Shown here piece after piece: positions 2,254 through 50,225 of a DNA stretch of 64,000 nt (position 1 is its first letter; every line of letters begins with the position of its first letter). Made by a program: the position numbers and the translations under genes. The notes under the pieces are model-generated. The model ran no database searches. It was given only the letters and a program-made list of their open reading frames with translations, and was not told the DNA's origin. The stretch is from a virus (Duplodnaviria > Heunggongvirae > Uroviricota > Caudoviricetes): positions 1 to 64,000 of IMG/VR virus record IMGVR_UViG_2718218131_000011; one strand, written 5' to 3'.

Positions 2254-2255
2254 AT

Positions 2256-5222
2256 ATGCCACGTCGTTCCATCCTGTCCGCCGCCGAGCGGGAAAGCCTG
2301 CTGGCGTTGCCGGACTCCAAGGACGACCTGATCCGACATTACACATTCAACGATACCGACCTCTCGATCATCCGACAGCGGCGCGGGCCAGCCAATCGGC
2401 TGGGCTTCGCGGTGCAGCTCTGTTACCTGCGCTTTCCCGGCGTCATCCTGGGCGTCGATGAACTACCGTTCCCGCCCTTGTTGAAGCTGGTCGCCGACCA
2501 GCTCAAGGTCGGCGTCGAAAGCTGGAACGAGTACGGCCAGCGGGAGCAGACCCGGCGCGAGCACCTGAGCGAGCTGCAAACCGTGTTCGGTTTCCGGCCC
2601 TTCACCATGAGCCATTACCGGCAGGCCGTCCAGATGCTGACCGAGCTGGCGATGCAAACCGACAAAGGCATCGTGCTGGCCAGCGCCTTGATCGGGCACC
2701 TGCGGCGGCAGTCGGTCATTCTGCCCGCCCTCAACGCCGTCGAGCGGGCGAGTGCCGAGGCGATCACCCGTGCTAACCGGCGCATCTACGACGCCTTGGC
2801 CGAACCACTGGCGGACGCGCATCGCCGCCGCCTCGACGATCTGCTCAAGCGCCGGGACAACGGCAAGACGACCTGGTTGGCTTGGTTGCGCCAGTCTCCG
2901 GCCAAGCCAAATTCGCGGCATATGCTGGAACACATCGAACGCCTCAAGGCATGGCAGGCACTCGATCTGCCTACCGGCATCGAGCGGCTGGTTCACCAGA
3001 ACCGCCTGCTCAAGATTGCCCGCGAGGGCGGCCAGATGACACCCGCCGACCTGGCCAAATTCGAGCCGCAACGGCGCTACGCCACTCTCGTGGCGCTGGC
3101 CACCGAGGGCATGGCCACCGTCACCGACGAAATCATCGACCTGCACGACCGCATCCTGGGTAAGCTGTTTAACGCTGCCAAGAATAAGCATCAGCAGCAG
3201 TTCCAGGCGTCAGGCAAGGCCATCAACGCCAAGGTACGTCTGTACGGGCGCATCGGTCAGGCGCTGATCGACGCCAAGCAATCAGGCCGCGATGCGTTTG
3301 CCGCCATCGAGGCCGTCATGTCCTGGGATTCCTTTGCCGAGAGCGTCACCGAGGCGCAGAAGCTCGCGCAACCCGATGACTTCGATTTCCTGCATCGCAT
3401 CGGCGAGAGCTACGCCACCCTGCGCCGCTATGCACCGGAATTCCTTGCCGTGCTCAAGCTGCGGGCCGCGCCCGCCGCCAAAAACGTGCTTGATGCCATT
3501 GAGGTGCTGCGCGGCATGAACACCGACAACGCCCGCAAGCTGCCAGCCGATGCACCGACCGGCTTCATCAAGCCGCGCTGGCAGAAACTGGTGATGACCG
3601 ACGCCGGCATCGACCGGCGCTACTACGAACTGTGCGCGCTGTCCGAGTTGAAGAACTCCCTGCGCTCGGGCGACATCTGGGTGCAGGGTTCACGCCAGTT
3701 CAAGGACTTCGAGGACTACCTGGTACCGCCCGAGAAGTTCACCAGCCTCAAGCAGTCCAGCGAATTGCCGCTGGCCGTGGCCACCGACTGCGAACAATAT
3801 CTGCATGAGCGGCTGACGCTGCTGGAAGCACAACTTGCCACCGTCAACCGCATGGCGGCAGCCAACGACCTGCCGGATGCCATCATCACCGAGTCGGGCT
3901 TGAAGATCACGCCGCTGGATGCGGCGGTGCCCGACACCGCGCAGGCGCTGATAGACCAGACAGCCATGGTCCTGCCGCACGTCAAGATCACCGAACTGCT
4001 GCTCGAAGTCGATGAGTGGACGGGCTTCACCCGGCACTTCACGCACTTGAAATCGGGCGATCTGGCCAAGGACAAGAACCTGTTGTTGACCACGATCCTG
4101 GCCGACGCGATCAACCTGGGCCTGACCAAGATGGCCGAGTCCTGCCCCGGCACGACCTACGCGAAGCTCGCTTGGCTGCAAGCCTGGCATACCCGCGACG
4201 AAACGTACTCGACAGCGTTGGCTGAACTGGTCAACGCTCAGTTTCGGCATCCCTTTGCCGGGCACTGGGGCGATGGCACCACATCATCATCGGACGGACA
4301 GAATTTCCGAACCGCTAGCAAGGCAAAGAGCACGGGGCACATCAACCCAAAATATGGCAGCAGCCCAGGACGGACTTTCTACACCCACATCTCCGACCAA
4401 TACGCGCCATTCCACACCAAGGTGGTCAATGTCGGCCTGCGCGACTCAACCTACGTGCTCGACGGCCTGCTGTACCACGAATCCGACCTGCGGATCGAGG
4501 AGCACTACACCGACACGGCGGGCTTCACCGATCACGTCTTCGCCCTGATGCACCTCTTGGGCTTCCGCTTCGCGCCGCGCATCCGCGACCTGGGCGACAC
4601 CAAGCTCTACATCCCGAAGGGCGATGCCGCCTATGACGCGCTCAAGCCGATGATCGGCGGCACGCTCAACATCAAGCACGTCCGCGCCCATTGGGACGAA
4701 ATCCTGCGGCTGGCCACCTCGATCAAGCAGGGCACGGTGACGGCCTCGCTGATGCTCAGGAAACTCGGCAGCTACCCGCGCCAGAACGGCTTGGCCGTCG
4801 CGCTGCGCGAGTTGGGCCGCATCGAGCGCACGCTGTTCATCCTCGACTGGCTGCAAAGCGTCGAGCTACGCCGCCGCGTGCATGCCGGGCTGAACAAGGG
4901 CGAGGCGCGCAATGCGCTGGCCCGTGCCGTGTTCTTCAACCGCCTTGGTGAAATCCGTGACCGCAGTTTCGAGCAGCAGCGCTACCGGGCCAGCGGCCTC
5001 AACCTGGTGACGGCGGCCATCGTGCTGTGGAACACGGTCTACCTGGAGCGTGCGGCGCATGCGTTGCGCGGCAATGGTCATGCCGTCGATGACTCGCTAT
5101 TGCAGTACCTGTCGCCACTCGGCTGGGAGCACATCAACCTGACCGGTGATTACCTATGGCGCAGCAGCGCCAAGATCGGCGCGGGGAAGTTCAGGCCGCT
5201 ACGGCCTCTGCAACCGGCTTAG
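2256..5222 (+). CDS. tnpA: Tn3/Tn21-family transposase TnpA
   Basis: 988-aa ORF directly downstream of tnpR in the same orientation, ending inside the terminal inverted repeat. Confidence 0.95.
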
Positions 5223-5255
5223 CGTGCTTTATTTTCCGTTTTCTGAGACGACCCC
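5218..5255. repeat. 38-bp terminal inverted repeat of Tn21-family transposon
   Basis: CTTAGCGTGCTTTATTTTCCGTTTTCTGAGACGACCCC is the reverse complement of the Tn21 IR GGGGTCGTCTCAGAAAACGGAAAATAAAGCACGCTAAG. Confidence 0.85.
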
Positions 5256-5511
5256 AAGAAGCACGGCGCGGTTTTGCTAAAGTGATGTCTGAGTTTGGCG
5301 AATTTTTGGGGCACGTTGACAAAGCCCTCTCAATCAGTTCAGCAAGGTCCAAAGCATTAACAGCTTCCATGATGAAATAAAAAAAGCCTGGCAAGGAGCC
5401 AGGCTGCACAAAAGAGCGGGTTTGTATTCCGCATCCAATCAATCAAGAAGGAGTATAGCACACAGGTACTGAAGTGAAAAAATGTGATTCGCGATAAACA
5501 AAATATCTACC

Positions 5512-5528
5512 ATTGCTCTAATTGATCG
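5512..5528 (+). promoter_or_regulatory. C1 repressor operator-like site upstream of ref
   Basis: ATTGCTCTAATTGATCG matches the P1 C1 operator consensus ATTGCTCTAATAAATTT at about 13 of 17 positions. Confidence 0.45.
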
Positions 5529-5595
5529 CTATAATTGAGCCGCAGTTTTTGTCAACTACGAAGACGTTGCCATTACTTAACTCCTTGACATCATT

Positions 5596-5621
5596 GGCGG
5601 CCATCAGGCCGCCTTTTTTTT
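5596..5621 (+). terminator. Terminator-like hairpin plus T-tract in the ref leader
   Basis: GGCGGCC-ATCA-GGCCGCC stem-loop followed by eight T residues, ending 6 bp before the ref ATG. Confidence 0.4.
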
Positions 5622-5626
5622 GCCAT

Positions 5627-6187
5627 ATGAAAACAATCGAACAAAAAATTGAACAGCACCGTAAGTGGCAGAAGGCAGCCAGAGAACGAGCGATCGCTCG
5701 GCAACGGGAGAAGTTGGCTGATCCGGCCTGGCGAGAATCTCAATATCAGAAAATGCGGAATACTATCGACCGCCGTATCGCTAAACAGAAAGAGCGCCCA
5801 CCAGCCAGCAAAACGTGGAAAAGCGCGGTAAAAATAAAATCTCGTGGCTTGAAGGGACGAACACCGACGGCGGAGGAGCGGCGCATAGCCAATGCTCTTG
5901 GCGCTCTCCCCTGCATTGCCTGCTATATGCATGGAGTAATATCTGAAGAGGTGTCTCTGCACCATATCTCCGGTCGTACCGCGCCTGGTTGTCACAAAAA
6001 GCAATTGCCACTTTGTAGATGGCACCACCAGCATGCAGCACCGGCTGAAGTAAGAGAAAAATACCCCTGGCTGGTCCCTGTTCATGCCGATGGTGTGGTT
6101 GGAGGCAAGAAAGAATTCACCTTGCTGAACAAGTCAGAGATGGAGTTGCTGGCTGACGCCTATGAGATGGCAAACATAATGCACTAA
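5627..6187 (+). CDS. ref: Recombination enhancement function Ref (HNH endonuclease family)
   Basis: 186 aa starting MKTIEQKIEQHRKWQKAARERA; Cys/His-rich HNH-like core CYMHGV...LHHISGR...CRWHH; recognised as P1 Ref. Confidence 0.85.
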   Translation: MKTIEQKIEQHRKWQKAARERAIARQREKLADPAWRESQYQKMRNTIDRRIAKQKERPPASKTWKSAVKIKSRGLKGRTPTAEERRIANALGALPCIACYMHGVISEEVSLHHISGRTAPGCHKKQLPLCRWHHQHAAPAEVREKYPWLVPVHADGVVGGKKEFTLLNKSEMELLADAYEMANIMH

Positions 6188-6376
6188 TAAATATATTATT
6201 TTTAATCTGAAATAATTGACAACTGACAAGTGACTTCAGTCAGAATCATCACATGCCCGGTACGGATGGATCCCTTTTCAAATATTCCATGGACGGCACA
6301 GTCTGAGTACCGGGCGCTACCTTCAGTTGTATTGCTAAGCCGCCGCTGGTGGCTTTTCTTTTTTATAAGGGGCGCT

Positions 6377-7018
6377 ATGGATAAGAAAATATGCGTTGTT
6401 TCGATGAGCGTCGGCAAACCGGCGTCAATGACTGCCGCATGGATCAACAATGAGCTGATAATGGCTGAGCGGACCAGCTACCCTGAACGCCGCCGCGATA
6501 TGGAACTCCAGCTGCTGCGCGAATTGCGAGAAAAAGAGGAAAAGGGTTTTATCGTGCTGGTGGAAGAGGAAAACAGCTTTATTACGGGTCGAGTTGGCCA
6601 GCGTGTAAGGTTGCGCGATCCCTTCATGAACGGCAGGCCGGTACTAATTGAAGCAATGCAGATTTACAAGGAGCTGGAACGCCAGAAAGCGATCAAGTTA
6701 CCGCGCAAAGAATCCGGCAAATACATCCTCCACCAAAGCATCTTCGATTCCGAACACGACAAAAAAGGCGATGAATTTTTCAACATCAACTGGAGCGAAA
6801 TAACGACAGAGCACGTTCTGTCGTTGTTATGCTGCTTCGCAACGGAATATAACAACGTTGCAAGCGCCGACTACATCAGGGCAATGGCTGGAGAAGTTGA
6901 GGCTCGCCAGGAACCATCGTTACTAAGCCCTCTGATTAACATAATTCGCGGAACCCAATGTCTAGCCGACAAGCGAGTTCCTCAAGGCTTACTTACCGGC
7001 AAAGAAAACTATTTATAA
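6377..7018 (+). CDS. Hypothetical protein at the position of P1 mat
   Basis: 213-aa ORF from MDKKICVV; backbone-like base composition; no recognisable motifs. Confidence 0.4.
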   Translation: MDKKICVVSMSVGKPASMTAAWINNELIMAERTSYPERRRDMELQLLRELREKEEKGFIVLVEEENSFITGRVGQRVRLRDPFMNGRPVLIEAMQIYKELERQKAIKLPRKESGKYILHQSIFDSEHDKKGDEFFNINWSEITTEHVLSLLCCFATEYNNVASADYIRAMAGEVEARQEPSLLSPLINIIRGTQCLADKRVPQGLLTGKENYL

Positions 7019-7047
7019 TTAATTACGTCAGTAGCCAATAGAGATTT

Positions 7048-7080
7048 TTGTTGTGGAACAAAAATATATATTTTACAATC
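7048..7080 (+). promoter_or_regulatory. Putative sigma70 promoter of the two-gene cassette
   Basis: TTGTGG (-35), 17-bp spacer, TACAAT (-10) about 30 bp upstream of the cassette start; GGGGGA ribosome-binding site before the ATG. Confidence 0.3.
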
Positions 7081-7108
7081 TAGTAACTTTGGGTGGGGGA
7101 TTATTACA

Positions 7109-8149
7109 ATGATGAATATTAAGCCGCTGAAAATTAGGAACAAGGTCATGAAGCCTCATAAAGCATTATTAAACCCTGACCTAACCGCAAGGAATGTACT
7201 TACATACAGTCATTGGGATTTTGTCGAACTCTGGTTAAAGCGAAACGAAAAAGATGAGGCTCTTTTTTATTGGGAGCAAGCAAAAGTATTTAATCAGGCG
7301 GCCAATGGTTTACCCAACCAATCAGCCCCACTTTTGCACTATTATTCATTCATGAATGCAGTAAAGGCGTTACTTTCATCTCGCAATATAAACTTCAAAC
7401 AGCATCATGGTGTTGCTAGGGGTGAAAATGCAGCCCAAATTGATAACTTATCTGATATAAAAGTAAAAATAAAAAATGAGGGTATACTTCCGTCTTTTTC
7501 AAAATATATTGACGGCACCTCTCATGAGGGGGTGTACAATATAAAAAACCTTTTTTCTGGATTGCCATATATTCATCGTACATATTGCCTTACTTATGAT
7601 GTAACTGATGATATATTTATTCCACTGATCGATGCTGAGTTCGTTTTGAATGAGTCAGACAATAGCCTGTTTTTCACTGCGATTTTATCCAAGGATTTTC
7701 GGTTCGACACAGTTTTCGACATTCTACCGCCAGCGTTCGAATTGTTTGAAAGAGAAAAGTACAAAATAAAATCAGTAGAATCATTACTTGATTATAATGA
7801 AAATCAATCGTCCAACATGCCGCAATTAACTGAATTTCATAAAAAAATAAGAAGAAATCTTTACTATATCAATGGCGCAGAGACTCTTTGGTATCTCAAA
7901 CGTAAAAACAATCAATCTGAGCATACTTCTGTTTCAATATCGCCATTGGTTATAACCCTAGCAGCTATGCATCGATTAAGTGAGCTATGTCGGTATGACC
8001 CACTTAAGCTAAGACAGTTACTAAATGAAAAAGAAAACTGGATTATTGCTGAATTTATTCAACAATCTCCGTCACAGTTTATAGATGCAATTTCATCTGA
8101 AATTACTGGACACCAATTTCTTATCCCAAACGTAAGGTCTGCTTCTTAA
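7109..8149 (+). CDS. Hypothetical 346-aa protein, cassette component A
   Basis: Long ORF in strongly AT-rich DNA with a good RBS; predicted largely helical, no TM segment; no family recognised by eye (a weak R-x6-H element near residue 250 is the only HEPN-like hint). Confidence 0.7.
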   Translation: MMNIKPLKIRNKVMKPHKALLNPDLTARNVLTYSHWDFVELWLKRNEKDEALFYWEQAKVFNQAANGLPNQSAPLLHYYSFMNAVKALLSSRNINFKQHHGVARGENAAQIDNLSDIKVKIKNEGILPSFSKYIDGTSHEGVYNIKNLFSGLPYIHRTYCLTYDVTDDIFIPLIDAEFVLNESDNSLFFTAILSKDFRFDTVFDILPPAFELFEREKYKIKSVESLLDYNENQSSNMPQLTEFHKKIRRNLYYINGAETLWYLKRKNNQSEHTSVSISPLVITLAAMHRLSELCRYDPLKLRQLLNEKENWIIAEFIQQSPSQFIDAISSEITGHQFLIPNVRSAS

Positions 8150-20741: not shown

Positions 20742-21854
20742 TTAGAATTGGTAGGTCATACCAACAGCAACGATGTTGTCGGTTGCAACCTCAGATGCTT
20801 TGGTAAATTCACTTTCATCAATCAGGTTGATCTTGTAGTCAACGAAAGCGGACATATTTTTGTTGAAGTAATAAGTCGCGCCTACGTCGATGTATTCAAC
20901 TAGATCCTGGTTACCGAACGCACCAATATTTTCACCGCGAGAGTGCAGGTAAGCGATGGACGGACGCAGGCCGAAATCAAACTGGTATTGAGCAACAGCT
21001 TCAAAGTTTTTCGCTTTGTTTGCGATAAAGTCATCACCGAAGACTGTCATATTCTGAGTTTCAGAATAAGTTGCAGCCAGGTAAATGTTGTTTGCGTCAT
21101 ATTTCAGACCAGTAGCCCATACTTCAGCTGTTTTACCAGAAGCATTCAGAGAGCTTGCATTAGCATAGGATACCTGTCCATCAGTACGGTCAGATTTTGC
21201 ATAAGTTGCGCCAATGCCAAATCCTTCATAATCATAAGTAGCTGACAGACCGAAGCCATCACCATTAGATTCAACTACGTCGCGGCCTTTCCAGTTGTTC
21301 ACTTTTGCAGCACTATCATTTTTACCCTGATACTGCAAAGCAAAGTTCAGACCATCAACCAAGCCGAAGAAATCATTGTTACGATAGGTCGCGACGCCAG
21401 TAGCACGCTGGGTCATAAATACATCAGTCTGAGTCCAGGTATCTCCACCAAACTCCGGCAGCACGTCAGTCCAAGCGCCAACATCATACGCTACACCGTA
21501 GTTGCGACCATAGTCGAGCGAACCATAATCGCCAAAGCGAAGCCCTGCAAACGCAAGACGAGTTTTGTCTTTATCAGAACCTTCAGTTTCAGTACGGTTA
21601 CCTTTAAATTCGTACTCCCACTGACCAAAACCGGTTAACTGGTCATTAATCTGAGTTTCACCTTTGAAACCCATACGAGCATAAGTTTTATCCCCGTCAT
21701 CACTAGCTGAAGAAGAGAAGTAATGCTCTGCATTAACTTTGCCGTACAGATCCAGTTTGTTACCGTCTTTGTTATAGATTTCTGCCGCTTGTGCAGACAT
21801 TGCCATCAGGACTGATGCTGCAACCGCAGAAAGTGCCACTGTGATTTTTTTCAT
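20742..21854 (-). CDS. General bacterial porin, OmpC/NmpC/Lc type
   Basis: 370 aa with signal peptide [40 protein letters not shown] start of mature protein and C-terminal VAVGMTYQF. Confidence 0.9.
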
Positions 21855-25888: not shown

Positions 25889-26254
25889 TTATTCTGCCTC
25901 TTTAATGTTGGCGGCTATCCATGCCGCCGTGTGCTGTTTAACCTGGTCCAGGTCGATGTATGTGCCAACATATTGACTCAAGTCCTGTAACGTACCGATA
26001 AATGCATCAGTGCTCTGATCGACGAATTTATCAGCCAGGAAATCAGCAACCAGTTTTGGCACACCATCATGTACCGAAGGTTGTTTTTCCTCGCCACTAC
26101 CGCTGCCGGACGCGCCGTACCCCATCTGTTGCATGATCTGGTCAATTTCATCGCTGATATCCAGCAACTCCATGCCACTCGCGGTCGCCGCTTTGGACAT
26201 TAGAGCATCCAACTTATCGCTGAGATCCATTAACTCAATAGCTGATAGTGTCAT
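25889..26254 (-). CDS. DdrA-like small acidic protein
   Basis: 121-aa ORF between the darA-like and ddrB-like genes. Confidence 0.5.
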   Translation of the reverse strand: MTLSAIELMDLSDKLDALMSKAATASGMELLDISDEIDQIMQQMGYGASGSGSGEEKQPSVHDGVPKLVADFLADKFVDQSTDAFIGTLQDLSQYVGTYIDLDQVKQHTAAWIAANIKEAE

Positions 26255-28170
26255 GCCGCTACCCCCGCTTTCTGGATTGCTACCAACAGATCAGCCAGGT
26301 GGCGAGCTGCGCCGTTAACCAGCTCTTCGTTTTCCTCAAAACGTTCGGCAGCCTGAAGGGATGCAATCGCTTCCCGGACATTGCCCCGGGCGTTACGGAT
26401 CTCCGCCATGTCAGTGCTTTGCATATCCATCACGTTATTGAGATATTCAATGGCTTTATTAGCCTCTGCATCTGCTTCGCTAACCGTTTCATCAGGCTGT
26501 GCCGGGGCCGGTTCTGGCTGAGTAATCTCACCGACTTCGGCCTGCAATGCATTGATCATGCTCTGCAACATTTTCTCGGTGCCAGCGCCACCCGGAAACG
26601 CAATATTGGGGAAAGTTTTTTGAAACTGAGTTTTCAGCATTACGCGGAACTCGTCTGGTGAGCTGGTGGCCAGCTCCAGAGCTTTTTGTGCATATTTGCC
26701 AAACGGACCATTAGTAAGTGTCTTCGCCAGGAAGTCGAAAGAATCCTCGCGAGGCAATAACTTCAGGTCGTACTCACTCATTTGCTGATCAGAAAGCGGG
26801 GTATCATAAGTAGCAATGCCGTAGCGTGCATATTCATAATACGGATCACCTTCATCAGGGCGCGGCAGAATTGCTTTGTTACCTTCAGGTATTGCGCCAG
26901 GGGCCGCCGGACGCATTTGCAGAGCATATCGATATGCACCTACAGAGACTTCTGGTTCAGGCGAAGAGCTACCGGTATCCTCCGCTGGTTCAGGTTCGAC
27001 GTTTTCCGGTTTATGTTCTTCTGGTTGGACCAGATATTCCGATACATTACCCGCTTTATAGGCTTTAAACAGCTTGCCGATTGCATCTGCCATGTCCACA
27101 CCCTGTATGGATTTAGCCTTGATCATATATACGCTGCCATCCGGATCGGTTAACTGGATATACCCTTCGCCATCCCCAATGAATTGCTTCATTGATGCAC
27201 CATTACTGAGCGTCGCTTCACCGTCCATATGCATGCGATTTTTGATACTGGCAAGGCGATCCGTCAACGCGCGTGAGTGCCCACCAGTTATTGTCACTGG
27301 AGCAATGGTATCGCGCCCACCTGTTCGATTGAGCTGATCAATCTCCGTCTGCAAACGCTCATTCTCTTCATAAAGAGAATCCGCTTCCGATGCAACAGCG
27401 TTAATTTTCTGCTCCAGATCTGCCTTCTGCCCTTCTACCGCTGCCACCTGATCCGCGAGGTCGCTCATGGCATCCTCTTTCTGGTCACTGTCAGCCTGTA
27501 GTTGGGTTATTTCATCAACAAGGGCTTTTTTCTTCTTCTGCGCACGCTGGAATTTTGCCGAGTTTTTCTCTGCAAGGTTGGCAAGTTTCATGGTGACCTG
27601 CGCCAGCGTCATATCACGTCCACTCATCGGAGCAACGGTGTGAGTAACGTCTTTTTTATTCAGTAAGAACTGGAAAGCAACCAGCGTATCGCTATTGGTG
27701 ATCCGGTTTTCCGCTGTCGGGCTATGAAACAGAATGCTGATAGTCTGACCATCACTGAGCGGAATAATGGCTGGCAGGACTGGCAGCCCGTTAACGTTAC
27801 GTGCCCGGCCAATTTCAGCGCCGCCGATCGCGCGCGCGCCGCTCTGGGCCACATCCCCCGTTTTATCACTCCCCGCAGAGATTCCAGTACCATTCAGCTT
27901 CTGGTTCAATGCCCGGACAAATGCCTGCATGGTCCGGTGTAACTGCAAACGAGTAGAACTAATCGCCTCCAGTAAATCCGTAGCACACCAGTGGATCGGC
28001 GTGTCATAGAAGAACGTAGCCTCGATTTCCTCCAGGGTGTTGGATTCCGTCATCAGATAGCGGTCCTCACCGGCCATTAATGCGCGATATTCATCATCAG
28101 TCACTGGCGGGGGAAGCACGTCAAGCCCAGGTTTGATCGTCACCCCTTTATTGATATTGAACTGTTCCAT
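26251..28170 (-). CDS. darA: DarA-like antirestriction protein
   Basis: 639-aa ORF in an operon headed by holin/antiholin-like genes, as in the P1 darA operon. Confidence 0.65.
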   Translation of the reverse strand: MEQFNINKGVTIKPGLDVLPPPVTDDEYRALMAGEDRYLMTESNTLEEIEATFFYDTPIHWCATDLLEAISSTRLQLHRTMQAFVRALNQKLNGTGISAGSDKTGDVAQSGARAIGGAEIGRARNVNGLPVLPAIIPLSDGQTISILFHSPTAENRITNSDTLVAFQFLLNKKDVTHTVAPMSGRDMTLAQVTMKLANLAEKNSAKFQRAQKKKKALVDEITQLQADSDQKEDAMSDLADQVAAVEGQKADLEQKINAVASEADSLYEENERLQTEIDQLNRTGGRDTIAPVTITGGHSRALTDRLASIKNRMHMDGEATLSNGASMKQFIGDGEGYIQLTDPDGSVYMIKAKSIQGVDMADAIGKLFKAYKAGNVSEYLVQPEEHKPENVEPEPAEDTGSSSPEPEVSVGAYRYALQMRPAAPGAIPEGNKAILPRPDEGDPYYEYARYGIATYDTPLSDQQMSEYDLKLLPREDSFDFLAKTLTNGPFGKYAQKALELATSSPDEFRVMLKTQFQKTFPNIAFPGGAGTEKMLQSMINALQAEVGEITQPEPAPAQPDETVSEADAEANKAIEYLNNVMDMQSTDMAEIRNARGNVREAIASLQAAERFEENEELVNGAARHLADLLVAIQKAGVAA

Positions 28171-28783: not shown

Positions 28784-29204
28784 CCTGTGCGAGATTTATT
28801 ACGTAACTTCTGCGGATTTGCTGAGTAACAGGGAAAATCCGATACAACGGGTTAATGAACGAGTCACCATGCGTAACCATGACGTTGAAATGCCACAGCC
28901 GTTCTCCTTTACCCATATATTCAGTGGGTATGTACAACCATTCACTGTTTTCGCCCTGTTCAGCCGACGTCAGACAACGTTGTTCGCCTTCAATCACTGT
29001 CGTTGGCTTCTGAACATCGCGGATCCAATATCTGACCGTTGCGCCGCGCAAAAACGGGAATTTAGACCGGTATTTGAACGGCACCCGGATGAAGCCCTGT
29101 TTAATTTCCACATCACCAAGTTCTAAATGCGTGATGTCCTTGCGTTTTAGCAAATAGCGATCGGCTAAGGCTAACGCAAGAACGCATACACCCCAGCCAA
29201 TCAT
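28761..29204 (-). CDS. LydB-like antiholin
   Basis: 147-aa ORF directly downstream of the holin-like gene. Confidence 0.5.
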   Translation of the reverse strand: MIGWGVCVLALALADRYLLKRKDITHLELGDVEIKQGFIRVPFKYRSKFPFLRGATVRYWIRDVQKPTTVIEGEQRCLTSAEQGENSEWLYIPTEYMGKGERLWHFNVMVTHGDSFINPLYRIFPVTQQIRRSYVINLAQDVSDDEK

Positions 29205-29530
29205 TTCCCACCTCCCTTTTTCACCAAACTTGTAAGAACATTCAGAATGCTATCGATATTCACTCGTTTCATCCCTGAAATCACCTCATGACCGTTATTG
29301 CTGGCTATCGTTACCATTAAGTACGTAATTGATAACTCCCAGCCCTCGTGTTGCCCCAATAGGTACGCCACCGCGCCAGCTGTCACTGCAACAAAGATCT
29401 CCGTAACCAATCCCAACAAATTGCCAGACTGGCGACCATCTCGGACATCCATCAGGAACGTGCCTATCCCACCAATTACTGAAAGCAGGAGCGCAATAGC
29501 AACTGGAGCTAATTCCTGTGTGTCAAGCAC
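29201..29530 (-). CDS. LydA-like holin
   Basis: 109 aa with hydrophobic helices (APVAIALLLSVIGGIGTFL, IFVAVTAGAVAYLL) and a charged C-terminus. Confidence 0.6.
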   Translation of the reverse strand: MLDTQELAPVAIALLLSVIGGIGTFLMDVRDGRQSGNLLGLVTEIFVAVTAGAVAYLLGQHEGWELSITYLMVTIASNNGHEVISGMKRVNIDSILNVLTSLVKKGGGK

Positions 29531-29599
29531 AAGTTCCCTCCTACGTTGTCAGGAGGTAATGGTATGCAAAGTAACTTCTCAACCGGTCATGTTGCTTGA

Positions 29600-29631
29600 C
29601 ATCCTCCACGTCCTTTAGAGCGTGGAGGATG
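29600..29631. repeat. Perfect 11-bp inverted repeat hairpin immediately before the intron-like segment
   Basis: CATCCTCCACG-10 nt-CGTGGAGGATG seen directly in the sequence. Confidence 0.7.
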
Positions 29632-29632
29632 T

Positions 29633-30430
29633 GTGCGCCCAGCATGGGCGCGATCTTGGAGGTGAAAGCCCTCCCGCGAGCTGACCACAGCGAGCGAAAT
29701 GAAGTGCAACTGCGTGAGGGCGACCGGGCGTGGGGAGGAAGCACGGAATGAACCCGTGAGCCGATGAACGAGAATCGGATATGAGGCGCGATGGAGCAAG
29801 GCGAGCAGGCACATCACTGCGAAGCTTTCGTGGTCAAGTCGAAGTCGCGCAGATCCGACGGTTGTGCGGGGAAGGATCGCGTTCTTACCTGGGGAGTTCT
29901 CGCCTCATGCCTGAAAGGGCAACGTCGTAAGACGGAGCGAGAAGTCAGCAGAGGCCGTAGTAGTCAGGACTCCGACGAAGGGCCGAACGAGAAGGAAAGC
30001 CAGAAGATATGACTCTTGACAGGACATTGCGTCAGAAGCCGGGGAAGCCCGGTACGGACCCGCATGCCGGGTGGTGTGGCAGGGGCGCAGCCCTTGTGCT
30101 CCCCCCTATGCCGATCAAGCAGAACATTGTGCTGGGCCTCTGACGCAGCTCCTTGATGGTCTTGGCATCGTGCTTAAGTGGATTGGTGTCGTCCCTGATA
30201 GGATCATGGAGGCAGAATGAAACTCAAAAATCCGGGATAGCACGCAAAACAGGCTGCACAAAAAGCGCAGGTTGCGTAGGAGTGAAATCCCGCTCCCAAA
30301 AAATGGTGCAGAAGTTGCGGCAGTGGTCATCCGACGCACTGGAAAATAACAAACCCGCCGTGACCAGAATCGGAGGCCTGAGGGAGTGACCGAAAAACCG
30401 GACAACCCAGGCAGCAAATACCCGCTGGAT
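29633..30430 (+). mobile_element. 5' fragment of a group II intron, no intact reverse transcriptase
   Basis: Begins GTGCGCCCAG (GUGYG boundary); purine-rich, GC-rich, no long ORF; motifs AGCACGG, CGATGA, AATCGGATATGAGG and CGTAGTAGTC resemble domain I-III strings of bacterial introns such as Ll.LtrB (recalled); short ORF at 30153-30389 may be a degenerate maturase start. Confidence 0.5.
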
Positions 30431-30535
30431 GAGGCATGGTTCCGGCAGATAATACCGAAAACCGCCAGACACACTGGATAATCAGTAGAAATAATCCATT
30501 AAAGTTATTATAATAATTGGTCACATTATTATATT

Positions 30536-31099
30536 ATGCTGAACAATAGAAATATGACTATTAATGAACTTAAAGACTGTATTCACTATGAAGTAATTGG
30601 TAGCGAGCGTCCTTTCTCTTGGCGAAAAGCAATTGTTCGCGCAATAAAACATAGAAGAGTTCGTTATTTATTTTGGTGGCGCATATCAAAATATCTTTTT
30701 GATAAAGGCGGATACAGGCGAAAGGTTGCAGGGAAAATAGAACGCTTCATTCTTGACAAATACAATGTAACCGTTCCCTTAACGGTAAATATAGGGAAAG
30801 GGTTTGACATATCTTATCTCAATGGCGTTGTTATCGCTCACAAAGTCACAATCGGTGAAAATTGTTCAATTAAGCCCGGAGTAACTATTGGACTTCGCGG
30901 GGAATTTAATGACATGGATATTGTTATAGGAGATAATGTGACCATTGGTTGTAATGCCACCATTCTTGGTGGCAAAGTGCGTATAGGAAACAATGTCACA
31001 ATAGGTGCTCATGCATTGGTATTGCATGATATTCCTGATGATTCAACATTCATCACTAAATTTCAGTCTGAAGTTATCTGCTCGTCCTCCCGCACATAA
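30536..31099 (+). CDS. Hexapeptide-repeat (left-handed beta-helix) acetyltransferase, WcaB/CysE-like
   Basis: 187 aa with tandem hexapeptide repeats [19 protein letters not shown]...[34 protein letters not shown]; AT-rich; own AT-rich upstream region. Confidence 0.8.
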
Positions 31100-31680
31100 C
31101 CCTGATTCATCAGCTCTGGCCATACGATATCCGGAGCTGTACTGGTATCAATTCGACTCACTAATACTCTGTATTTTCTCCAGGAGTCCAGTTGTGAATT
31201 TTCCTCGTTTGTTGCTATTTCAAGATTAACTGCGTCCTGCAGAATTGCGATGTTATCTGTTGCCTCCTGGATCAACCTTGCCTTTTTCTCTTCCGCTTCC
31301 CGTATCCGAAACAGTTTTTCTGCTTCCTCATCCTTCACCCAGGATACGCCGTCCCACTTCTGATACTCCCCTGCTGGCGACAACCAGGTGACATTCTCTG
31401 GTAGCGGTCCGGGTTCAGAAATAAACAACGCGTCCCCCGATGCCACCTCATAGACCGTTTTACCACGATGGTCTTCAACAATATTCCACGATTCATTTTC
31501 ACTGTTGAAAACTGCCACAAAGCCAGTAGGAATTTCCGGTGGGGCGATATCTGTAGAATTAGCTGGCAGCCCTGTATGAGGTGGAATATATGCGTCATCT
31601 TCACCAATAAACTCATTAGTTCCGGCCAGCAGGTTATAAATTTTTACTGTACGTGATTGTTCACTCATTCTGAATGCCAT
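31063..31680 (-). CDS. Tail fibre assembly chaperone (U/Tfa family)
   Basis: 205-aa ORF immediately downstream of the tail fibre gene. Confidence 0.7.
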
Positions 31681-34600
31681 TATGCAAGCCTCACAATATA
31701 ATTAAATGCGATGTTTTTAACGGTGTTTTCCGCGTTACCAGCAGCATTAACGGTGATGGTATGTCCATGTGAACCAATCGCAACAGAGTGCGTATGAGCG
31801 CCAATACCAACTGTATGTGCATGCGCCCCTGCACTTGCAGCAGTGCCTGATACTGAGTGGGTGTGTGCACCAGAAGAAGGCACTGTTCCATTCCCCACGA
31901 CCGTGCCACTTGATGAACCATCAAGCCAGTCGAAATTCATACCTCCACTGTTTGGTCTCCTTAATGGAACGGTATGAGTATGTGCGCCAGCACTATTTGC
32001 AGTACCAGATACATTGTGGGTATGTGCACCTGTGTTATTCGTTGGTTTAGTACCGTAATCAAACGACGATGTGGTTTTCGTCCCCAAATCCGTACTGGAT
32101 GCGCTGGCGCTGTGGGTGTGCGATTTAATGCCGTCCTGTTCCTGAGACAATACGGCACGACCACTGGCAGGTTTGCCCTTAATCGTCCAGCCACGCATAT
32201 CAGGGATCACGCCTGACGGATAAGCGGCTGCAAGTTTCGGGTAAGCAGATTTGTCAAAAGTCTGCCCCTGCATTAGGGCATAACCAGACGGAACGGTATC
32301 TGATGGCCACGGGATTGGTGCGCCGACTGGGTAGCTTTCTGGTGGAAGATTTTTCGAGGTATAAACTTCTGCCCAGTCTTCTTCAAAACCATAACCGTCT
32401 CTTGAAGAACGGTAGAACAGACCACCATTTCTGTAATGCGCCTTCATCTGCAATGTCCGGCAACTTCCGACTCCGGTATAGAAGTTAACCAGAATATAGC
32501 TGTCGCCAGAGCGGGTGACATTGTAAGCGCCTGATTCGGCATTCCAGGGAACGCCACCATCCGCATCGGCATATGTATCCGTTGCCCTTCTGGCAAAAGC
32601 AGCCACATGCGCGGCGGTTAAAGTGATATCAGTAGAACCATCAAATGGAACACCGGATATTTTTCTTGCAGTCTGAAGTTTTGTAGCAGTTGCAGCATTA
32701 CCGTTCAAACTACCATTGATGCCGCCAGTAACATTGAGTCCATTACCGATCGTAACAGCACCATTGGCATTGTTAATGATAAGCGGCCTTAACCTATTAT
32801 AGGTTCCTAGGCTGTTACCCGAATCGGTCAACATGAAATATGTGTTTGAACCATCGTTTCGGATAAAGAATCCGTAGTTTCCGTAGGCAATGCGCAGACC
32901 ATTCGCCGATTTGGAAATAATCTCGCCAGCAGCAGTTAATCCGCCAGTTAACGCTCCTCCAGATAGTGGTAAAGCTCCGACATCAGCCGCAGTAGGCTTG
33001 TTTTTAGTGTTATACGCTCTGCGCCATCCTGGTGAATAGCTCGTCCCGTTAAACACATAGACAAACTCCGCATTAGTGAGTGCGCCAGAGACACCTGTCG
33101 TTGTTGCCGTTGTTATACGAATCGTATAATTGTTTGAGCTACTGCCGTTATTAAATACCTCAATAACTGCGCCAGCCAGTGGAATAATGCCGCATCCTGT
33201 TTCGCTGTCTGGTATGGATGCACTATTTGCATACGCCCAGGCACAACGCGCTATCCATGCCTTTGCATTAAAAGCACCATTATCTCGTAGCAGAGTCACT
33301 AATTGCTCTGTTGTTATTGAAGCTCCATTATCACCTGTTACAAGCCAACCAGTAGGAGATGCCGGGCAACCAATATTTGCTGGTGACAGTGAAATATTCG
33401 CAGAACCGTCAAATGAAACCCCATTAATGGTACGCGCTGTTAGCAATTTGGTAGCCGTAGCTGCATTACCGGTTGTGTTCTGGTTACCAGCAATGTTTAC
33501 ACCCGGCAGATTGATATTGGCGGAGCCATCGAATGATACGCCGCCTATTGTGCGTGCTGTTTGCAGTTTTGTTGCAGTTGCAGCATTGCCAGTAGTGCTC
33601 TGATTACCTGTTTTATTCACACCTGGCAGGTCGATGTTTGCGGTACCATTAAATGAAACGCCACCAATGGTTCTTGCCGTTTGTAATTTCGTGGCAGACG
33701 CCGCATTTCCTGTTGTGTTCTGGTTGCCCGTTGTATTTACGCCCGGTATGGAGTCTTTCGATGTATAGACCTGTGCCCACTCAGACCATGCCGCATCTGT
33801 GTTATCTCTTCGGGAGCGAATGAAAACTGGCGCATGTGCACCGCTCGTACCACTCCAGCCAATAAGCAACTCGCCCTCACCAGCAGCACTCGCACCTTTC
33901 ATGTGCAATACGTTGCCATACGTGGTCGGGTAGCTATTGTTGTACGCCTCGTACATTTGAATGCCAGCAGTGCCTTGAGTAGAGCCGCTTAACGCCGTAA
34001 CTCGGCCACGAGATACCAATGTATTAATGTTGATATCGCCTGAGCCATCAAACTTAACACCGTTGATGTTTCTTGCCGTCGCAAGTTTTGTCGCGGTAGC
34101 AGCATTCCCCGTGGTGTTCTGGTTACCTGTTGTATTTACACCTGGAAGATTGATATTGGCCGAGCCATCAAATGCCACACCGCCAATCGTGCGTGCTGTT
34201 TTCAATTTCGTCGCGGTGTCGGCGTTCCCTGTCAGCGCCCCGGTGATCCCGCCGTTGAAAGTCTGGCGCGCACTCCATGTGTTAGCCGTGCTCAACAGGG
34301 GGATCTTTTCACCGCTGGTACCGAGTTCTCTTAAACCAAGGTATTGGATAACGGCCAGTGTGCTTGTTTTAGCCAGAATATCGCGACCGACTGACGTTAA
34401 ATCAGTCTGCGCTACCGTATCCTTACCAGTGAAATAAGGCAGTTTGTTTGCACCAGTCGCAAGGGCAGCGAGCGCGGTTAAAGTTGCATCCAGAGGCTGT
34501 TTGCCTGCCAGCGCATTTGTCATTGTTGTCGCAAAGTTCGGGTCATTGCCCAGTGCTGCTGCAAGCTCATTCAGAGTATCAAGAGCTTCAGGTGATGAGC

Positions 34601-35699
34601 CGACCAATGCAGAGATAGCAGCTCTTACATAAGCGGTCGTAGCAATCTGCGTGTTATTCGTACCCTGTGCAGCGGTAGGCGCAGTAGGTATTCCCGTTAA
34701 TGCAGGACTTGCTAAAGGAGCTTTAAGAGCCAGAGCATTGTTGATAGTTGTGCTGAAATTCGGGTCGTTATTGATCGCAGCAGCTATTTCTTTAAGCGTA
34801 TCCAGTGTGCCAGGTGCACCGTTGATAAGTGCCGTTATAGCTGCCTTAACAAAGGCTGTATTTGCGATCTGCGTGCTGTTTGTACCTTGCGCTGCCGTCG
34901 GCGCGGTTGGCGTTCCTGTCAGACTCGGGCTTTCTATTGGCGCTTTGGTATCAGCCAGCTCTTTTACAGACTTAACGGCTTTAGGGGTAGCCGCCATTGT
35001 TTCGCTGTCGCTGTTAGTTGCGCTACTGAGCTGAACTAATCCCTTTTGTGTTGTGCTTGCATCCTGCGCCGTATACTTGCTTTTAGCCAGATCGTAGGCT
35101 TTTTTAACTGCCAGCGAACTCGCAGCAACATCACTTCTGGTACTGGTTACAGAGTCTGAAATATCAATGCCGATCGTGCGGTTGATACGCTTGGATGTAT
35201 CAATCATCTCCTGGGTAATGGCAGATACACCAGCAGGGATATTCACCGTACAAACAAGCAGCTCCCCATCTCCTAACTGATATGAATCGGTATAGGTTCT
35301 GGAAACAAATTCAGCCGCATGAATATGTGACGCGGTATTCACCTGATAGGTATCTTCTCCAAGGAGGTATCTTCCCTTCAGCACAATTGCATATTTCTTG
35401 CCTGCACTAAGTGCAAGAGAAATATCCTTACGTTGCTGAATAGTTACCTGGTAGAATTCACCAATATCCACCGACGCCGCGCCTGCGGTTTTATCACCAT
35501 CCACTGAGGTGATTAACAGGTTCATCCCACCGCCAGGCTTAGGTAAGAAACCGGCATAAAATCCCGGGTCAACAATCCCCCTGAATTTTCGGTTTAGCGC
35601 GGCTGACAGATATGGTTCGTGGTATTGCACATCAGCCACCAGAGCCAACGACTCGGGTGATGGGTAAGTAACCGATGTGACAACTGTAACGTCATTCAT
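31680..35699 (-). CDS. Tail fibre protein (S-like), non-invertible
   Basis: About 1340 aa from [10 protein letters not shown]; internal phage tail-fibre repeats ([26 protein letters not shown]) and C-terminal His-rich GAHTH repeats. Confidence 0.85.
33400..34270. repeat. Imperfect tandem repeats of about 120 bp inside the tail fibre gene
   Basis: Three units at about 33400-33759 and two at about 34039-34270, visible as repeated peptides in both the sense and antisense ORF tracks. Confidence 0.6.
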
Positions 35700-35710
35700 C
35701 AAGCATATCC

Positions 35711-36145
35711 TTATGCTGTAGTCGTGTTTATGGCCATAACTGCGGTATATGTTTTGCCCACATACAGCGAGTCTTCCTGGACACAAATAATGGCGATTGG
35801 CTTGTTCTCGTTATCCAGAACAACCAGAGTGTTGAATGGGTAGTTTTTCCCTTCCTGCAACTGGCTTTGATCAAGGTCCATTCGGACAGTTATTATCCCG
35901 CCTGAGTAGGTTGGGACGAGGTTGATGGTGCAAAATTGACTGGTCAGTTCTGCCAGATCGAAAGCCTTTGGCAGTTCTCCAATCTCATAAGTGCCATCTC
36001 CTTTCTTAGTAACCAGTGAACTGGTACCGAAAACGGCCTTGCTGATTAAAAATCGAGAGCCTTTGTTAATGGACGATTCAGCGCGCCGCTGATAGTAATA
36101 GTCCAACAACTGACTCTTATAGAGGTTTGTTGAGACGTCAGACAT
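35711..36145 (-). CDS. Tail fibre structural protein (P1 R-like)
   Basis: 144-aa ORF directly upstream of the tail fibre gene on the same strand. Confidence 0.5.
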
Positions 36146-36223
36146 GATTTTCCCTAATCAATGTTGTGAAGCCTCATTGTAAGAGAAGTAACTTGTCACC
36201 CCGCCCTGCGGACGGGGTGATTG

Positions 36224-37063
36224 TCAGGCGTCGCTATCCAGCAACAAATCATCTGCGCGTGTGCGATCAAACGTAGGTGTCGCTTTCACAATAGTGCCAC
36301 CAGGCGTTGCGGTGATCGGGGCGCTAATCGACGTAACTCCAGTAAGCGAAGTTGTATCCGAAGTTTCAAACCAGCAGAATGCTTTTTCGGTATCAGAAAT
36401 CTCGTTCAAAGTGATCATGTCGGCCTGTTCATTTACAACAACCGACAAATAGAGCGTAAGCCCATCAAACACTATATGCAGTGGCAGTAAAGGCTTTACG
36501 AACTGATTAAACTTTCTGAGAATTTCTTCTGTAATTGCGGACTGATCTATCGTGCCAGTAATCCCCATTGTCCGGGCCAGGTCGTTTATGGGAATACTGA
36601 TCATCCCTCTGGAAGTCAGAAACATCTCGCCGAATGTGCCGCCGGTTATCTCCAGTGTGCTTTCTGGTATTAGAACCGTGCCATAGGGATGACGCTCAAG
36701 GTCCACCGGTGCATATATCGGATCCCATAAAACAGAAATACCGTTAAATTCGCGGTAAATTGTCTGGTTTATAGGGCGTTCAGTCCCCTTAAAGTGAATC
36801 TCATCAAGACGCTGTTGTAACAACATCGGAACGGAAGATGAGTTCGACGTTCTGATAGTAAAGAACTGGCCAAGTTCATTTGTCCTGGTCTCCAGATCCT
36901 CCTTGCTCATGGAAAAAATAGACTTCCGGTTGGTAATTCGCTCCAACCATGGGTCAACAAAGGTATCCATCATTGACTGAACCAAATCAGCCAATGATTT
37001 ATAGAGCAATGCCTTTTGCTTAGCTGATGTAAGCCGGTTATTAAACCAGGAACGCTGCATCAC
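36224..37063 (-). CDS. Baseplate/tail structural protein (P1 gp16-like position)
   Basis: 279-aa ORF in the tail module. Confidence 0.45.
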   Translation of the reverse strand: MMQRSWFNNRLTSAKQKALLYKSLADLVQSMMDTFVDPWLERITNRKSIFSMSKEDLETRTNELGQFFTIRTSNSSSVPMLLQQRLDEIHFKGTERPINQTIYREFNGISVLWDPIYAPVDLERHPYGTVLIPESTLEITGGTFGEMFLTSRGMISIPINDLARTMGITGTIDQSAITEEILRKFNQFVKPLLPLHIVFDGLTLYLSVVVNEQADMITLNEISDTEKAFCWFETSDTTSLTGVTSISAPITATPGGTIVKATPTFDRTRADDLLLDSDA

Positions 37064-46195: not shown

Positions 46196-46379
46196 GTATT
46201 TTTAAGTCGCGAATGCTATCTTTTCGCATCATATTGACCTTTTAATCGTTCAGGCTTATAGTTCCGCCGTCGTAGCAAATTCTGCGACCGGGTTTAGCAG
46301 CCTGAATACTTACGCGGACAACCGCAGATTTCCGATATTGCGGTATTTTTGTGTCCGTAAACCACGTTACGCCCGAATT

Positions 46380-46460
46380 ATGGTGGGGCGTGATGGGGAG
46401 GCTTCGGCCTGCTGGTTTCGTAAGTGCCAGTCTGCTAACCCCGTCACGTCCTGCCACCTG
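46380..46460 (+). ncRNA. Putative c4-like antisense immunity RNA
   Basis: Structured GC-rich segment (GGTGG...CCACC) between the operator and icd at the position of P1 c4; boundaries approximate. Confidence 0.3.
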
Positions 46461-46507
46461 TTTAGCAGCGGGTCGCAGGTTGTTTATCAACTTACGAGGC
46501 CGTAACT

Positions 46508-49895: not shown

Positions 49896-50018
49896 TACAA
49901 TCGTTGCGGGTGCTTGAGGCTATCTGCTTCAGGCATTACCCGAAAAGCAGATAGAAGAAAGCCCCAGATAACATTACGCGTCCTGCAAGACGCTTAACAT
50001 TAATCTGAGGCCATATCT

Positions 50019-50225
50019 ATGCTTAGCATACGTAGATTAGCCTCTTACCGACCAAAAGGTCAAGGAGAAGCAGGCTATGAAGCAGCAAAAAGCGATGTTA
50101 ATCGCTCTGATCGTCATCTGTTTAACCGTCATTGTGACGGCACTGGTAACGAGGAAAGACCTCTGCGAGGTACGAATCCGAACCAGCCAGACGGAGGTCA
50201 CTGTCTTCACAGCCTACGAATCTGA
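50019..50225 (+). CDS. mok-like reading frame overlapping hok
   Basis: 68-aa ORF overlapping the hok CDS in a different frame, as in hok/mok/sok loci. Confidence 0.35.
   Translation: MLSIRRLASYRPKGQGEAGYEAAKSDVNRSDRHLFNRHCDGTGNEERPLRGTNPNQPDGGHCLHSLRI

Follow-up and report, generated by a model that had tools for sequence, protein, structure and literature searches.

The 64-kb window (the whole 64,000-nucleotide stretch of DNA analysed here) is, judged by its sequence, an E. coli phage-plasmid of the P1-like (Punavirus) group and of the pHYEC7-mcr1 type, and its S locus is an ordinary, already catalogued tail-fibre gene of such an element. The account that we consider very probable as a whole is that of a P1-like phage-plasmid whose S protein is a fibre with a tip of the gp37/Stf type, and which has lost the inversion switch. 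Similar P1-like elements that lack cin or carry a Stf/Tfa substitution have already been published.

Gene S in a P1-type setting

More than 20 complete IncY phage-plasmids match the window locus 100% over 7.2 kb. The P1 gene order is kept, with darA-hdf-lydB-lydA on one side of the fibre locus and R-16-bplA-sit on the other, and nucleotide identity to P1 is 96% across 34195-36298 (blastn). The element has genes for baseplate, tube and sheath, and S has the position of P1 gpS, downstream of R, under the late promoter LPs and beside baseplate genes. LPs (36176-36194, minus strand; -22 box AAGTTACTT, -10 box TACAAT), which drives R-S-tfa, is identical to P1 at 75 of 76 positions in its region, and both boxes are those annotated in NC_005856. 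Gene R (35711-36145, minus strand) encodes a tail-fibre attachment/assembly protein of 144 aa (phrog_2032, E 7e-85) and aligns with P1 R inside the 96%-identical backbone block. The locus thus agrees with those of P1 and P7 (NC_005856, AF503408) in where it lies in the genome, in its late promoter and in its R gene, and S would be expressed late from LPs as part of the operon R-S-tfa.

Gene S itself encodes a mosaic tail-fibre protein of 1339 aa and occupies 31680-35699 on the minus strand, stop codon included (ORF call, Pfam, PDB and P1 homology). The first-pass annotation had called a single fibre gene of about 1340 aa here; both the extent and the singleness of the gene are upheld, the window of this P1-like element containing no second fibre C-terminus. 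The longest minus-strand ORF begins at a TTG and runs from 35786 to 31680, but this 1368-aa version was rejected as the gene, since it runs into R and P1 gpS begins at the ATG. The start of S is placed at the ATG at 35699 because the N-terminus that follows (MNDVTVV) is that of P1 gpS and because R stops at 35711. Its product and WP_167824463.1 of pHYEC7-mcr1 are 100% identical. Exactly the same 1339 aa recur on 284 contigs, more than 20 complete plasmids carry them too, and there are dozens of variants with no more than a few residues changed.

Tip, chaperone and acetyltransferase

The last 219 aa of S (aa 1121-1339; 31683-32339, minus strand) are homologous to the D10 (collar) and D11 (needle) domains of the T4 gp37 tip (PDB 2XGF, E 1e-85), with 67% identity to T4 gp37 and 61% to lambda Stf (tblastn). 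Structure 2XGF aligns with this tip from end to end, with identity of 83% in the collar and, over the final 18 residues, 94%, and Pfam recognizes both Collar (PF07484, E 1e-12) and, in six stretches, PF03335. The collar with an inserted needle and the conserved C-terminal strand of gp37/Stf tips are therefore all represented. The tip has seven HxH motifs (at aa 1194, 1226, 1240, 1279, 1293, 1302 and 1311), four of which read GAHTH, and all 14 of the histidines align with those of gp37 (883/885, 915/917, 929/931, 966/968, 980/982, 989/991 and 998/1000). The first-pass annotation had found the GAHTH/HxH cluster reminiscent of T-even tips, and the relationship has turned out to be stronger than that, namely whole-length homology to the gp37 tip with every iron-ligand histidine kept. 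Seven iron sites are known in the T4 gp37 tip (PMC6957217); by analogy, seven HxH layers contributed by three chains may hold seven metal ions on the trimer axis (Fe2+ in T4). The remainder of the S fibre is unrelated to gp37, Tfa is found instead of gp38/gp57A, and the carrier is a temperate P1-type myovirus.

Between the third and fourth HxH motifs, alignment to T4 reveals a hypervariable distal loop (aa 1244-1278; 31866-31970, minus strand) that is only 11% identical to T4 gp37 and of different length, whereas its flanks are 70-94% identical. Two natural alleles that are otherwise identical (P0087 and P0089) differ in their distal loops. Residues 933-949 of T4 gp37, which are needed for LPS/OmpC binding (PMC6957217), map onto this loop, and by analogy the short loop at the far end of S is presumed to be the region that contacts the receptor.

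The tfa gene lies directly downstream of S, where a gp37/Stf chaperone is expected (31063-31680, minus strand), and its ATG overlaps the TAA stop codon of S by 1 nt. It encodes a tail-fibre assembly chaperone of 205 aa (PF02413 Caudo_TAP, E 3e-39; phrog_105, E 1e-92) that belongs with lambda Tfa and not with T4 gp38. The C-terminal part of the protein matches Mu U (5YVQ_B), and the match to P1 U is confined to the C-terminal 60 aa (46% identity). T4 gp37 requires gp38 and gp57A, and the older literature holds that lambda Tfa is able to replace gp38. Tfa, translationally coupled to S, would assist the folding and trimerization of the tip.

The 3' end of tfa shares 37 nt with a convergent gene for a hexapeptide-repeat acetyltransferase (30536-31099, plus strand; RefSeq start 30554; PF00132), whose NCBIfam matches (EpsC, CysE and WcaB) all fall under the cut-off. 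The gene goes along with the tip-tfa module, and the three-gene block is 93.8% identical in the myovirus 613R2. Tip, Tfa and acetyltransferase could conceivably be a co-adapted cassette in which the acetyltransferase modifies the surface target of the tip, with in-register recombination, at the 40-aa units and the histidine boxes, replacing the Cin switch at the population level; if so, the acetyltransferase might bring about receptor masking or superinfection exclusion in lysogens. We consider this extended proposal unlikely.

Shaft modules, repeat units and natural alleles

According to the blastn map, S is a mosaic of P1 Sc, then a P1-family shaft, and then a Stf/gp37-type tip accompanied by tfa and the acetyltransferase. 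The baseplate-proximal constant part, Sc, is arranged as in P1 and P7 (34349-35699, minus strand), is 96-97% identical at the nucleotide level to P1, P7, RCS47 and JL22, and holds a pair of 74-aa repeats annotated in P1 (b1 and b2, aa 253-326 and 327-400, 69% identical). Its role may be deduced from the homologues: these roughly 450 aa would, like those of P1, attach the fibre trimer to the baseplate. Residues 1-724 of S are 84.7% identical to P1 S, unit insertion included (blastp). Beyond Sc, P1/P7 and the window have in common knob domain 1, the gp34-type trimerization domain and the opening 134 nt of Sv. Knob domain 1 (aa 559-651; 33747-34025, minus strand), which is shared with P1 Sv (blastp against P1 S), matches no Pfam family. 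Further out, a Mu S'-like domain is followed by the trimerization domain of the T4 gp34 type (together 32775-33386, minus strand; PDB 8JU3, 5YVQ and 4UXE, and Pfam), the former at aa 772-908 (aa 759-908 in the comparison with Mu; 8JU3, E 7e-26 for that stretch) and the latter at aa 876-975 (PF21446, E 1e-31). Knob domain 2 (aa 1034-1126; 32322-32600, minus strand) is again Mu S'-like (8JU3, stretch 3, E 2e-20). Mu S/S' and U (5YVQ, 8JU3) are thus matched in two S'-like domains, the trimerization domain and the C-terminal part of Tfa; in contrast to Mu, the window lacks a G segment inverted by Gin, and its tip belongs to the gp37 type.

Together with these domains, six 40-aa units would make the shaft a string of modules. 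Units 1 and 2 are in tandem (aa 479-518 and 519-558; 34265-34146 and 34145-34026), as are the three 120-nt units 3-5 (aa 652-691, 692-731 and 732-771; 33746-33627, 33626-33507 and 33506-33387), and unit 6 (aa 988-1027; 32738-32619) lies by itself at the junction of shaft and distal module; all are on the minus strand, in an arrangement denoted 2-3-1. A DNA repeat search finds six in-register copies, 66-76% identical over 79 nt, with start-to-start spacings of 768, 120, 120, 399 and 120 nt. Pairwise identity among the units is 52-85% at the amino acid level and 53-72% at the nucleotide level. The imperfect 120-bp fibre repeats described at first pass are accordingly confirmed, and the term tandem applies to the head-to-tail blocks of two and three units but not to the solitary sixth. 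Taken singly, the units have no Pfam match with E of 1 or below; PF03406 (Phage_fiber_2), considered as their identity, matches aa 215-254 in Sc instead.

Three mosaic boundaries fall inside repeat units, namely units 1, 4 and 6 (blastn map). Homology to P1 and P7 stops at 34195, within unit 1, while at unit 6 homology to the P1-like phage MH422554 stops at 32740 and homology to the lambdoid phage Turner begins at 32705. From unit 6 through the tip and into tfa, lambdoid phages (Turner, mEp332 and ev099) are 85-91% identical to the window at the DNA level. Set against lambda Stf-Tfa and the lambdoid and P2/Mu-like fibres (including vB_EcoM-613R2), the N-terminal two-thirds of the window fibre and its baseplate context are instead P1-type. 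Compared with P1, window S has three additional 40-aa units (one before knob 1 and two after), and compared with both P1 and P7 its distal 350 aa are replaced by the gp37/Stf-type end, with a lambda-type Tfa as chaperone.

The suggestion that the repeats might allow variation in fibre length is supported by copy numbers in relatives. Natural S alleles that share this genomic setting vary in steps of entire units (2-1-1, 2-2-1, 3-3-1, 4-3-1, 2-3-4 and others), and the block of units 3-5 contains one, two or three units in near-identical alleles. A 213-aa deletion arose at least twice, the junction units being different in alleles P0101 and P0107, and the unit deletions are always in frame. The junctions of the P0101 and P0091 deletions are approximate at the level of single bases, the alignments running through similar units. 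Some variant alleles come from draft assemblies, where errors in repeat assembly are possible; for the window allele, repeat collapse is unlikely because its units are only 53-72% identical in nucleotide sequence. Both tip and shaft are evidently exchanged by homologous recombination at the population level. In-register unequal recombination between units would alter shaft length across genomes, and swapping of the loop between conserved histidine boxes would produce different tips.

These alleles also bear on whether the fibre operon is still in use. P1-like plasmids in which the tail-fibre and cin regions are damaged, and presumed to have lost function, have been described (PMC6906374), and the window carries a Tn3-family transposon and, adjoining the fibre operon, a dead group II intron. 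The element might then be plasmid-only and the operon a disused, decaying remnant; the missing cin, the relic of the intron and the transposon/IS insertions would be marks of domestication. This reading is quite improbable, as R, S and tfa are full-length and coupled by their start and stop codons, the late promoter is intact, and the baseplate, tube and sheath genes are in place. The in-frame unit deletions, the 14 conserved metal-ligand histidines and the recurrence of one protein, with its close variants, on hundreds of contigs likewise count against decay. The operon is likely functional, because its ORFs are intact and the exact S protein is found on 284 contigs. The nearby group II intron signal also raised the question of a diversity-generating retroelement, which was rejected: tblastn with LtrA finds no reverse transcriptase anywhere in the window, and there is no template/variable repeat pair.

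Another conception of the 120-nt repeats is that they form a programmed contingency locus, with frequent slippage within a lineage tuning fibre length, as opposed to old modules that occasionally recombine. The near-identical alleles that differ by whole units, and the repeated origin of the 213-aa deletion, are what one would expect of such a locus. Yet the units are less alike in DNA (53-72%) than in amino acid sequence, and Tandem Repeats Finder, at a minimum score of 30, calls no 120-nt array because they are too diverged at the DNA level; slippage should therefore be rare. Moreover, 80 of the 120 relatives listed keep the 2-3-1 arrangement, and P1 S, like many other fibres, has units equivalent to these. 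A contingency locus is very improbable, and the units are better regarded as old modules.

Absence of the inversion switch

In P1, the variable C-terminal end of gpS belongs to an invertible C segment bounded by cixL and cixR; in the window, cixR alone is present. The absence of cin and of an inverted alternative fibre segment, both claimed in the first-pass annotation, is borne out. With P1 Cin as the tblastn query, no Cin homologue is found near S in the 64-kb window, nor does pHYEC7-mcr1, a complete plasmid with the same locus, contain one anywhere. No recombinase of the cin kind borders the fibre region: the only Cin-like match in the window is a 36% identical serine recombinase at 1693-2253 (match at 1708-2232), roughly 30 kb from S. 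It was rejected as a displaced cin: it directly precedes a Tn3-family transposase (1329 bits) and is evidently the TnpR partner of that enzyme. No second fibre C-terminus, U/U' or tfa is detected in the window by tblastn with P1 Sv', U and U' or with the S C-terminus and tfa of the window itself; pHYEC7-mcr1 likewise has no alternative arm, and the interval 29000-36500 contains no long inverted repeat. The elements of a Din-family switch, that is, an adjacent serine invertase, paired inverted sites and an arm in opposite orientation, are all missing.

The accompanying claim that there are no cix sites was wrong. The P1 Cin crossover site cixR is found inside S as an exact copy, 20/20 (34329-34348, plus strand), within the codons for QYLGLRE; it has 0 mismatches, and none of 100 shuffles gave a match. 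Even with as many as 3 mismatches allowed, the 64 kb yield no partner cix site. That the distal module was captured through cix was considered and rejected, there being no breakpoint at the crossover site; the nearest is 134 nt away, inside unit 1.

Din-family invertases cross-complement, and they normally need two sites in cis plus an enhancer. That an invertase acting in trans (such as e14 Pin, or one from another prophage or plasmid) still swaps the distal fibre between the unmutated cixR and a cix elsewhere is barely credible, given the single cix in the window, the lack of an alternative arm in window or pHYEC7-mcr1, the lack of a mosaic boundary at the crossover, and the location of cixR in coding DNA conserved at 96-97% identity among P1-like phages, so that protein constraint explains its conservation. 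A single genome of the window type would thus be unable to switch host range by inversion, and for one genome the fixed host range put forward at first pass is a reasonable supposition.

The route to this state may be read from related elements. [quoted passage not shown] Compared with P1 and P7, from which its cixR does not differ, the window is without cin, lydC, cixL, Sv', U' and U. Phages JL22 (ON018986) and vB_EcoM-Ro157c2YLVW (NC_050153) resemble the window in combining a P1 backbone with a Stf-type S end, tfa and a convergent serine-acetyltransferase-like gene, and the Stf/Tfa substitution in JL22-type phage-plasmids has been described (PMC9603915). Unlike the window, JL22 keeps lydC, cin, Sv', U' and an inverted copy of the cix region, and Ro157c2YLVW keeps a U' remnant; their S proteins are shorter (1006 and 949 aa, respectively), and their tip-tfa alleles are about 78% identical to that of the window. 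JL22 is reported to be still capable of lysogeny (PMC9603915, PMC6906374).

Based on the mosaic map, the distal module of tip, tfa and acetyltransferase would have been gained by homologous recombination within a repeat unit and would have displaced the Sv-U arm from the invertible C segment. JL22 would represent the state after this substitution, with cin, Sv' and U' still there; lydC, cin, Sv' and U' would then have been deleted, leaving one fibre type, an orphan cixR in coding sequence, and a scar with a group II intron relic. We infer the order of substitution and deletion from the three extant forms (JL22, Ro157c2YLVW and the window), which may have arisen independently, because the tip-tfa alleles of JL22 and the window differ (78% nucleotide identity) and JL22 has no match to the window acetyltransferase (blastn map).

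The locus adds little new knowledge; what it shows is a P1-family element without the textbook switch, with one fibre made of parts from P1, Mu, T4 gp34 and T4 gp37/lambda Stf. Its module boundaries and conserved histidine boxes are naturally tolerated splice points for engineering. P1-like phage-plasmids of this type disseminate mcr-1, blaCTX-M and other resistance genes, and the fibre type sets which bacteria can be reached; cataloguing the tip alleles and the lengths of the shaft would therefore be useful both in epidemiology and in the engineering of P1-based delivery particles.

The S locus and its neighbours

The tail fibre gene S (35699-31680, minus strand) is embedded in P1 gene order, with darA (26251-28170), hdf, lydB and lydA (29201-29530) on one flank and R (35711-36145), gene 16, bplA and sit on the other, all on the minus strand. 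Ahead of R, the late promoter LPs has the same two boxes as in P1. A 7.2-kb query (29000-36200) is matched full-length at 99.9-100% identity by more than 20 complete E. coli plasmids, including the IncY phage-plasmid pHYEC7-mcr1 (NZ_KX518745), in which the ORF is annotated 'phage tail protein' (WP_167824463.1). Records of the phage collection cover at most 48% of that query, and the exact S protein occurs in 284 contigs of the protein collection. The locus is ordinary and already catalogued, and the first-pass annotation describes it correctly except for one factual error, on cix sites (see below).

Directly downstream of S is a Caudo_TAP/Tfa chaperone gene whose ATG shares one base with the S stop codon, and the S fibre presumably assembles with Tfa. 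A hexapeptide-repeat acetyltransferase gene (30536-31099, plus strand) converges on tfa with a 37-nt overlap. Its product is a member of PHROG 2154 and falls below the cut-off for every NCBIfam equivalog (EpsC, CysE, WcaB). The gene is co-inherited with the tip and tfa in the myovirus 613R2, and the P1-like phages JL22 (ON018986) and Ro157c2YLVW have a similar gene at the same place. One might speculate that the enzyme modifies surface polysaccharide, as a lysogenic conversion function.

Repeat units and natural length variants

S encodes 1339 aa from the ATG at 35699, the P1 gpS start, in agreement with the predicted length; a TTG start at 35786 was rejected because it overlaps R. The predicted 120-bp repeats are also real. 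A repeat search found six copies in register (start-to-start distances of 768, 120, 120, 399 and 120 nt), and protein-level comparison places the 40-aa units at aa 479-518, 519-558, 652-691, 692-731, 732-771 and 988-1027, a 2-3-1 arrangement. Pairwise identity among them is 52-85% (aa) and 53-72% (nt), and Tandem Repeats Finder called none. The b1/b2 elements of the constant part (Sc) of P1 S, an older 74-aa pair, are also present at aa 253-400. Pfam recognizes Phage_fiber_2 in Sc, Gp34_trimer at aa 876-975 and Collar, and has no family for the 40-aa units or for either knob domain (aa 559-651 and 1034-1126). Among solved structures, the Mu S/S' fibre 8JU3 is matched by aa 759-908 and 1034-1126, and Mu S 5YVQ and T4 gp34 by aa 898-1000.

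The suggestion that the repeats allow length variation is borne out, since natural S alleles vary by whole units. The 2-3-1 arrangement is found in 80 of the 120 best relatives; others in this set are 2-2-1 (1300 aa), 2-1-1 (1259 aa), 2-1 (1126 aa, with two different junctions), 3-3-1 (1509 aa), 4-3-1 (1549 aa), 2-3-2, 2-3-3 and 2-3-4. The alleles of 1126 and 1259 aa share the R-S-tfa-acetyltransferase context, and apart from deletions of 213 and 80 codons, respectively, their identity to the window exceeds 98.6%.

A gp37-type receptor-binding tip

The C-terminus is His-rich as first described, with seven HxH motifs within aa 1194-1313. Residues 1121-1339 align with the receptor-binding tip of T4 gp37 (2XGF; E 1e-85), and the isolated tip gives six matches to the 14-aa repeat PF03335. 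Identity to gp37 is 67% overall, 83% in the collar and 94% in the last 18 residues; the corresponding values for the tip are 61% against lambda Stf and 94% against the 613R2 fibre. All 14 tip histidines align with gp37 H883/885, 915/917, 929/931, 966/968, 980/982, 989/991 and 998/1000, and the T4 needle contains seven coordinated iron atoms (PMC6957217). By analogy, the S tip probably binds metal.

In contrast, the loop that separates His boxes three and four (aa 1244-1278) is only 11% identical to T4. T4 is therefore a guide to the fold and the metal sites of the tip, but not to its receptor. T4 residues 933-949, needed for LPS/OmpC binding, fall in this same loop (PMC6957217). Two variant alleles, P0087 and P0089, differ from the window protein solely there, a pattern reported for T-even fibres by Tetart et al. 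1998 (cited in PMC10879196). The variable loop is the likely receptor contact. A 370-aa ORF at 20742-21854 (minus strand) corresponds to a pHYEC7-mcr1 gene that carries the annotation 'porin OmpC'; because the contact loop is unlike that of T4, no link can be claimed between this porin and a tip of the OmpC-binding gp37 family.

Absence of the Cin switch and mosaic structure of the fibre gene

In P1, lydC, cin, cixL, Sv', U' and U sit between lydA and S. The window lacks cin, as the first-pass annotation stated: the sole tblastn match to Cin is a 36%-identical protein at 1708-2232. A Tn3-family transposase comes next to it downstream, which identifies the protein as a transposon resolvase. This module (1693-5222, plus strand) encodes a 186-aa resolvase-like serine recombinase and then the 988-aa transposase (NF033527, 1329 bits). 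The corresponding part of pHYEC7-mcr1 lacks the module, and that complete plasmid contains no Cin homologue at all. Neither a second fibre end nor a second chaperone was found in the window, nor were long inverted repeats in 29000-36500. The claim that cix sites are also missing was mistaken, because the 20-nt P1 cixR is present with zero mismatches at 34329-34348, within the QYLGLRE codons. This orphan site is most simply explained by coding-sequence constraint. Loss of or damage to cin and the C segment has been reported in P1-like plasmids (PMC6906374).

At the position of P1 lydC-cin lies an ORF-less group II intron relic (29599-30115, plus strand). At 29599-29632 the sequence forms a perfect hairpin of 13 bp (fold z-score -4.8), with GUGCG immediately 3' at 29634, and Rfam matches domains D1-D4 at 29714-29983. 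Compared with an ltrA-bearing intron from a Leclercia plasmid, positions 29632-30000 are 81% identical to the 369 nt 5' of ltrA and 30047-30115 are 84.5% identical to the 71 nt directly past the ltrA stop, so the entire RT ORF of about 1.3 kb has been deleted. No RT was found in the window, and the 3' piece gives no score for D5-D6 (RF00029), compared with 34 bits for the Leclercia copy. The roughly 350 nt between relic and acetyltransferase gene (30116-30465) match none of the compared phages and plasmids except plasmids sharing the whole locus. Two Rfam hits elsewhere on the plus strand reach the gathering score: the C4 antisense RNA of P1 immunity together with its a1/b1 target (46256-46461), and a sok antitoxin RNA belonging to a hok/sok module (49908-50082).

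The locus is a mosaic. The lydA side (29000-29597) is about 99% identical to P1, and 34195-36300 is P1/P7/JL22 backbone (96-97%). The P1-like phage MH422554, which retains cin and the full C segment, matches 32740-36300 at 88-92%, the window having one extra 120-nt unit. The lambdoid phage Turner matches 31116-32705 (85%), and the tip, tfa and acetyltransferase region of 613R2 matches 30466-32312 (93.8%). Boundaries sit within repeat units 1, 4 and 6, and none is at cix.

JL22 and Ro157c2YLVW look like intermediate forms. Ro157c2YLVW has a U' remnant only, whereas in JL22 lydC, cin, Sv' and U' are all still present alongside an acetyltransferase-tfa-stf arm, a substitution reported by its authors (PMC9603915). 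The distal module would have been substituted first and cin deleted later. In JL22 (330-8143 of its locus sequence) the 155 nt next to cix also recur in inverted orientation, along with cin, Sv' and U'. With these switch components and the acetyltransferase-tfa-stf arm together, the JL22 switch may alternate between a Mu-type and a gp37/Stf-type tip.
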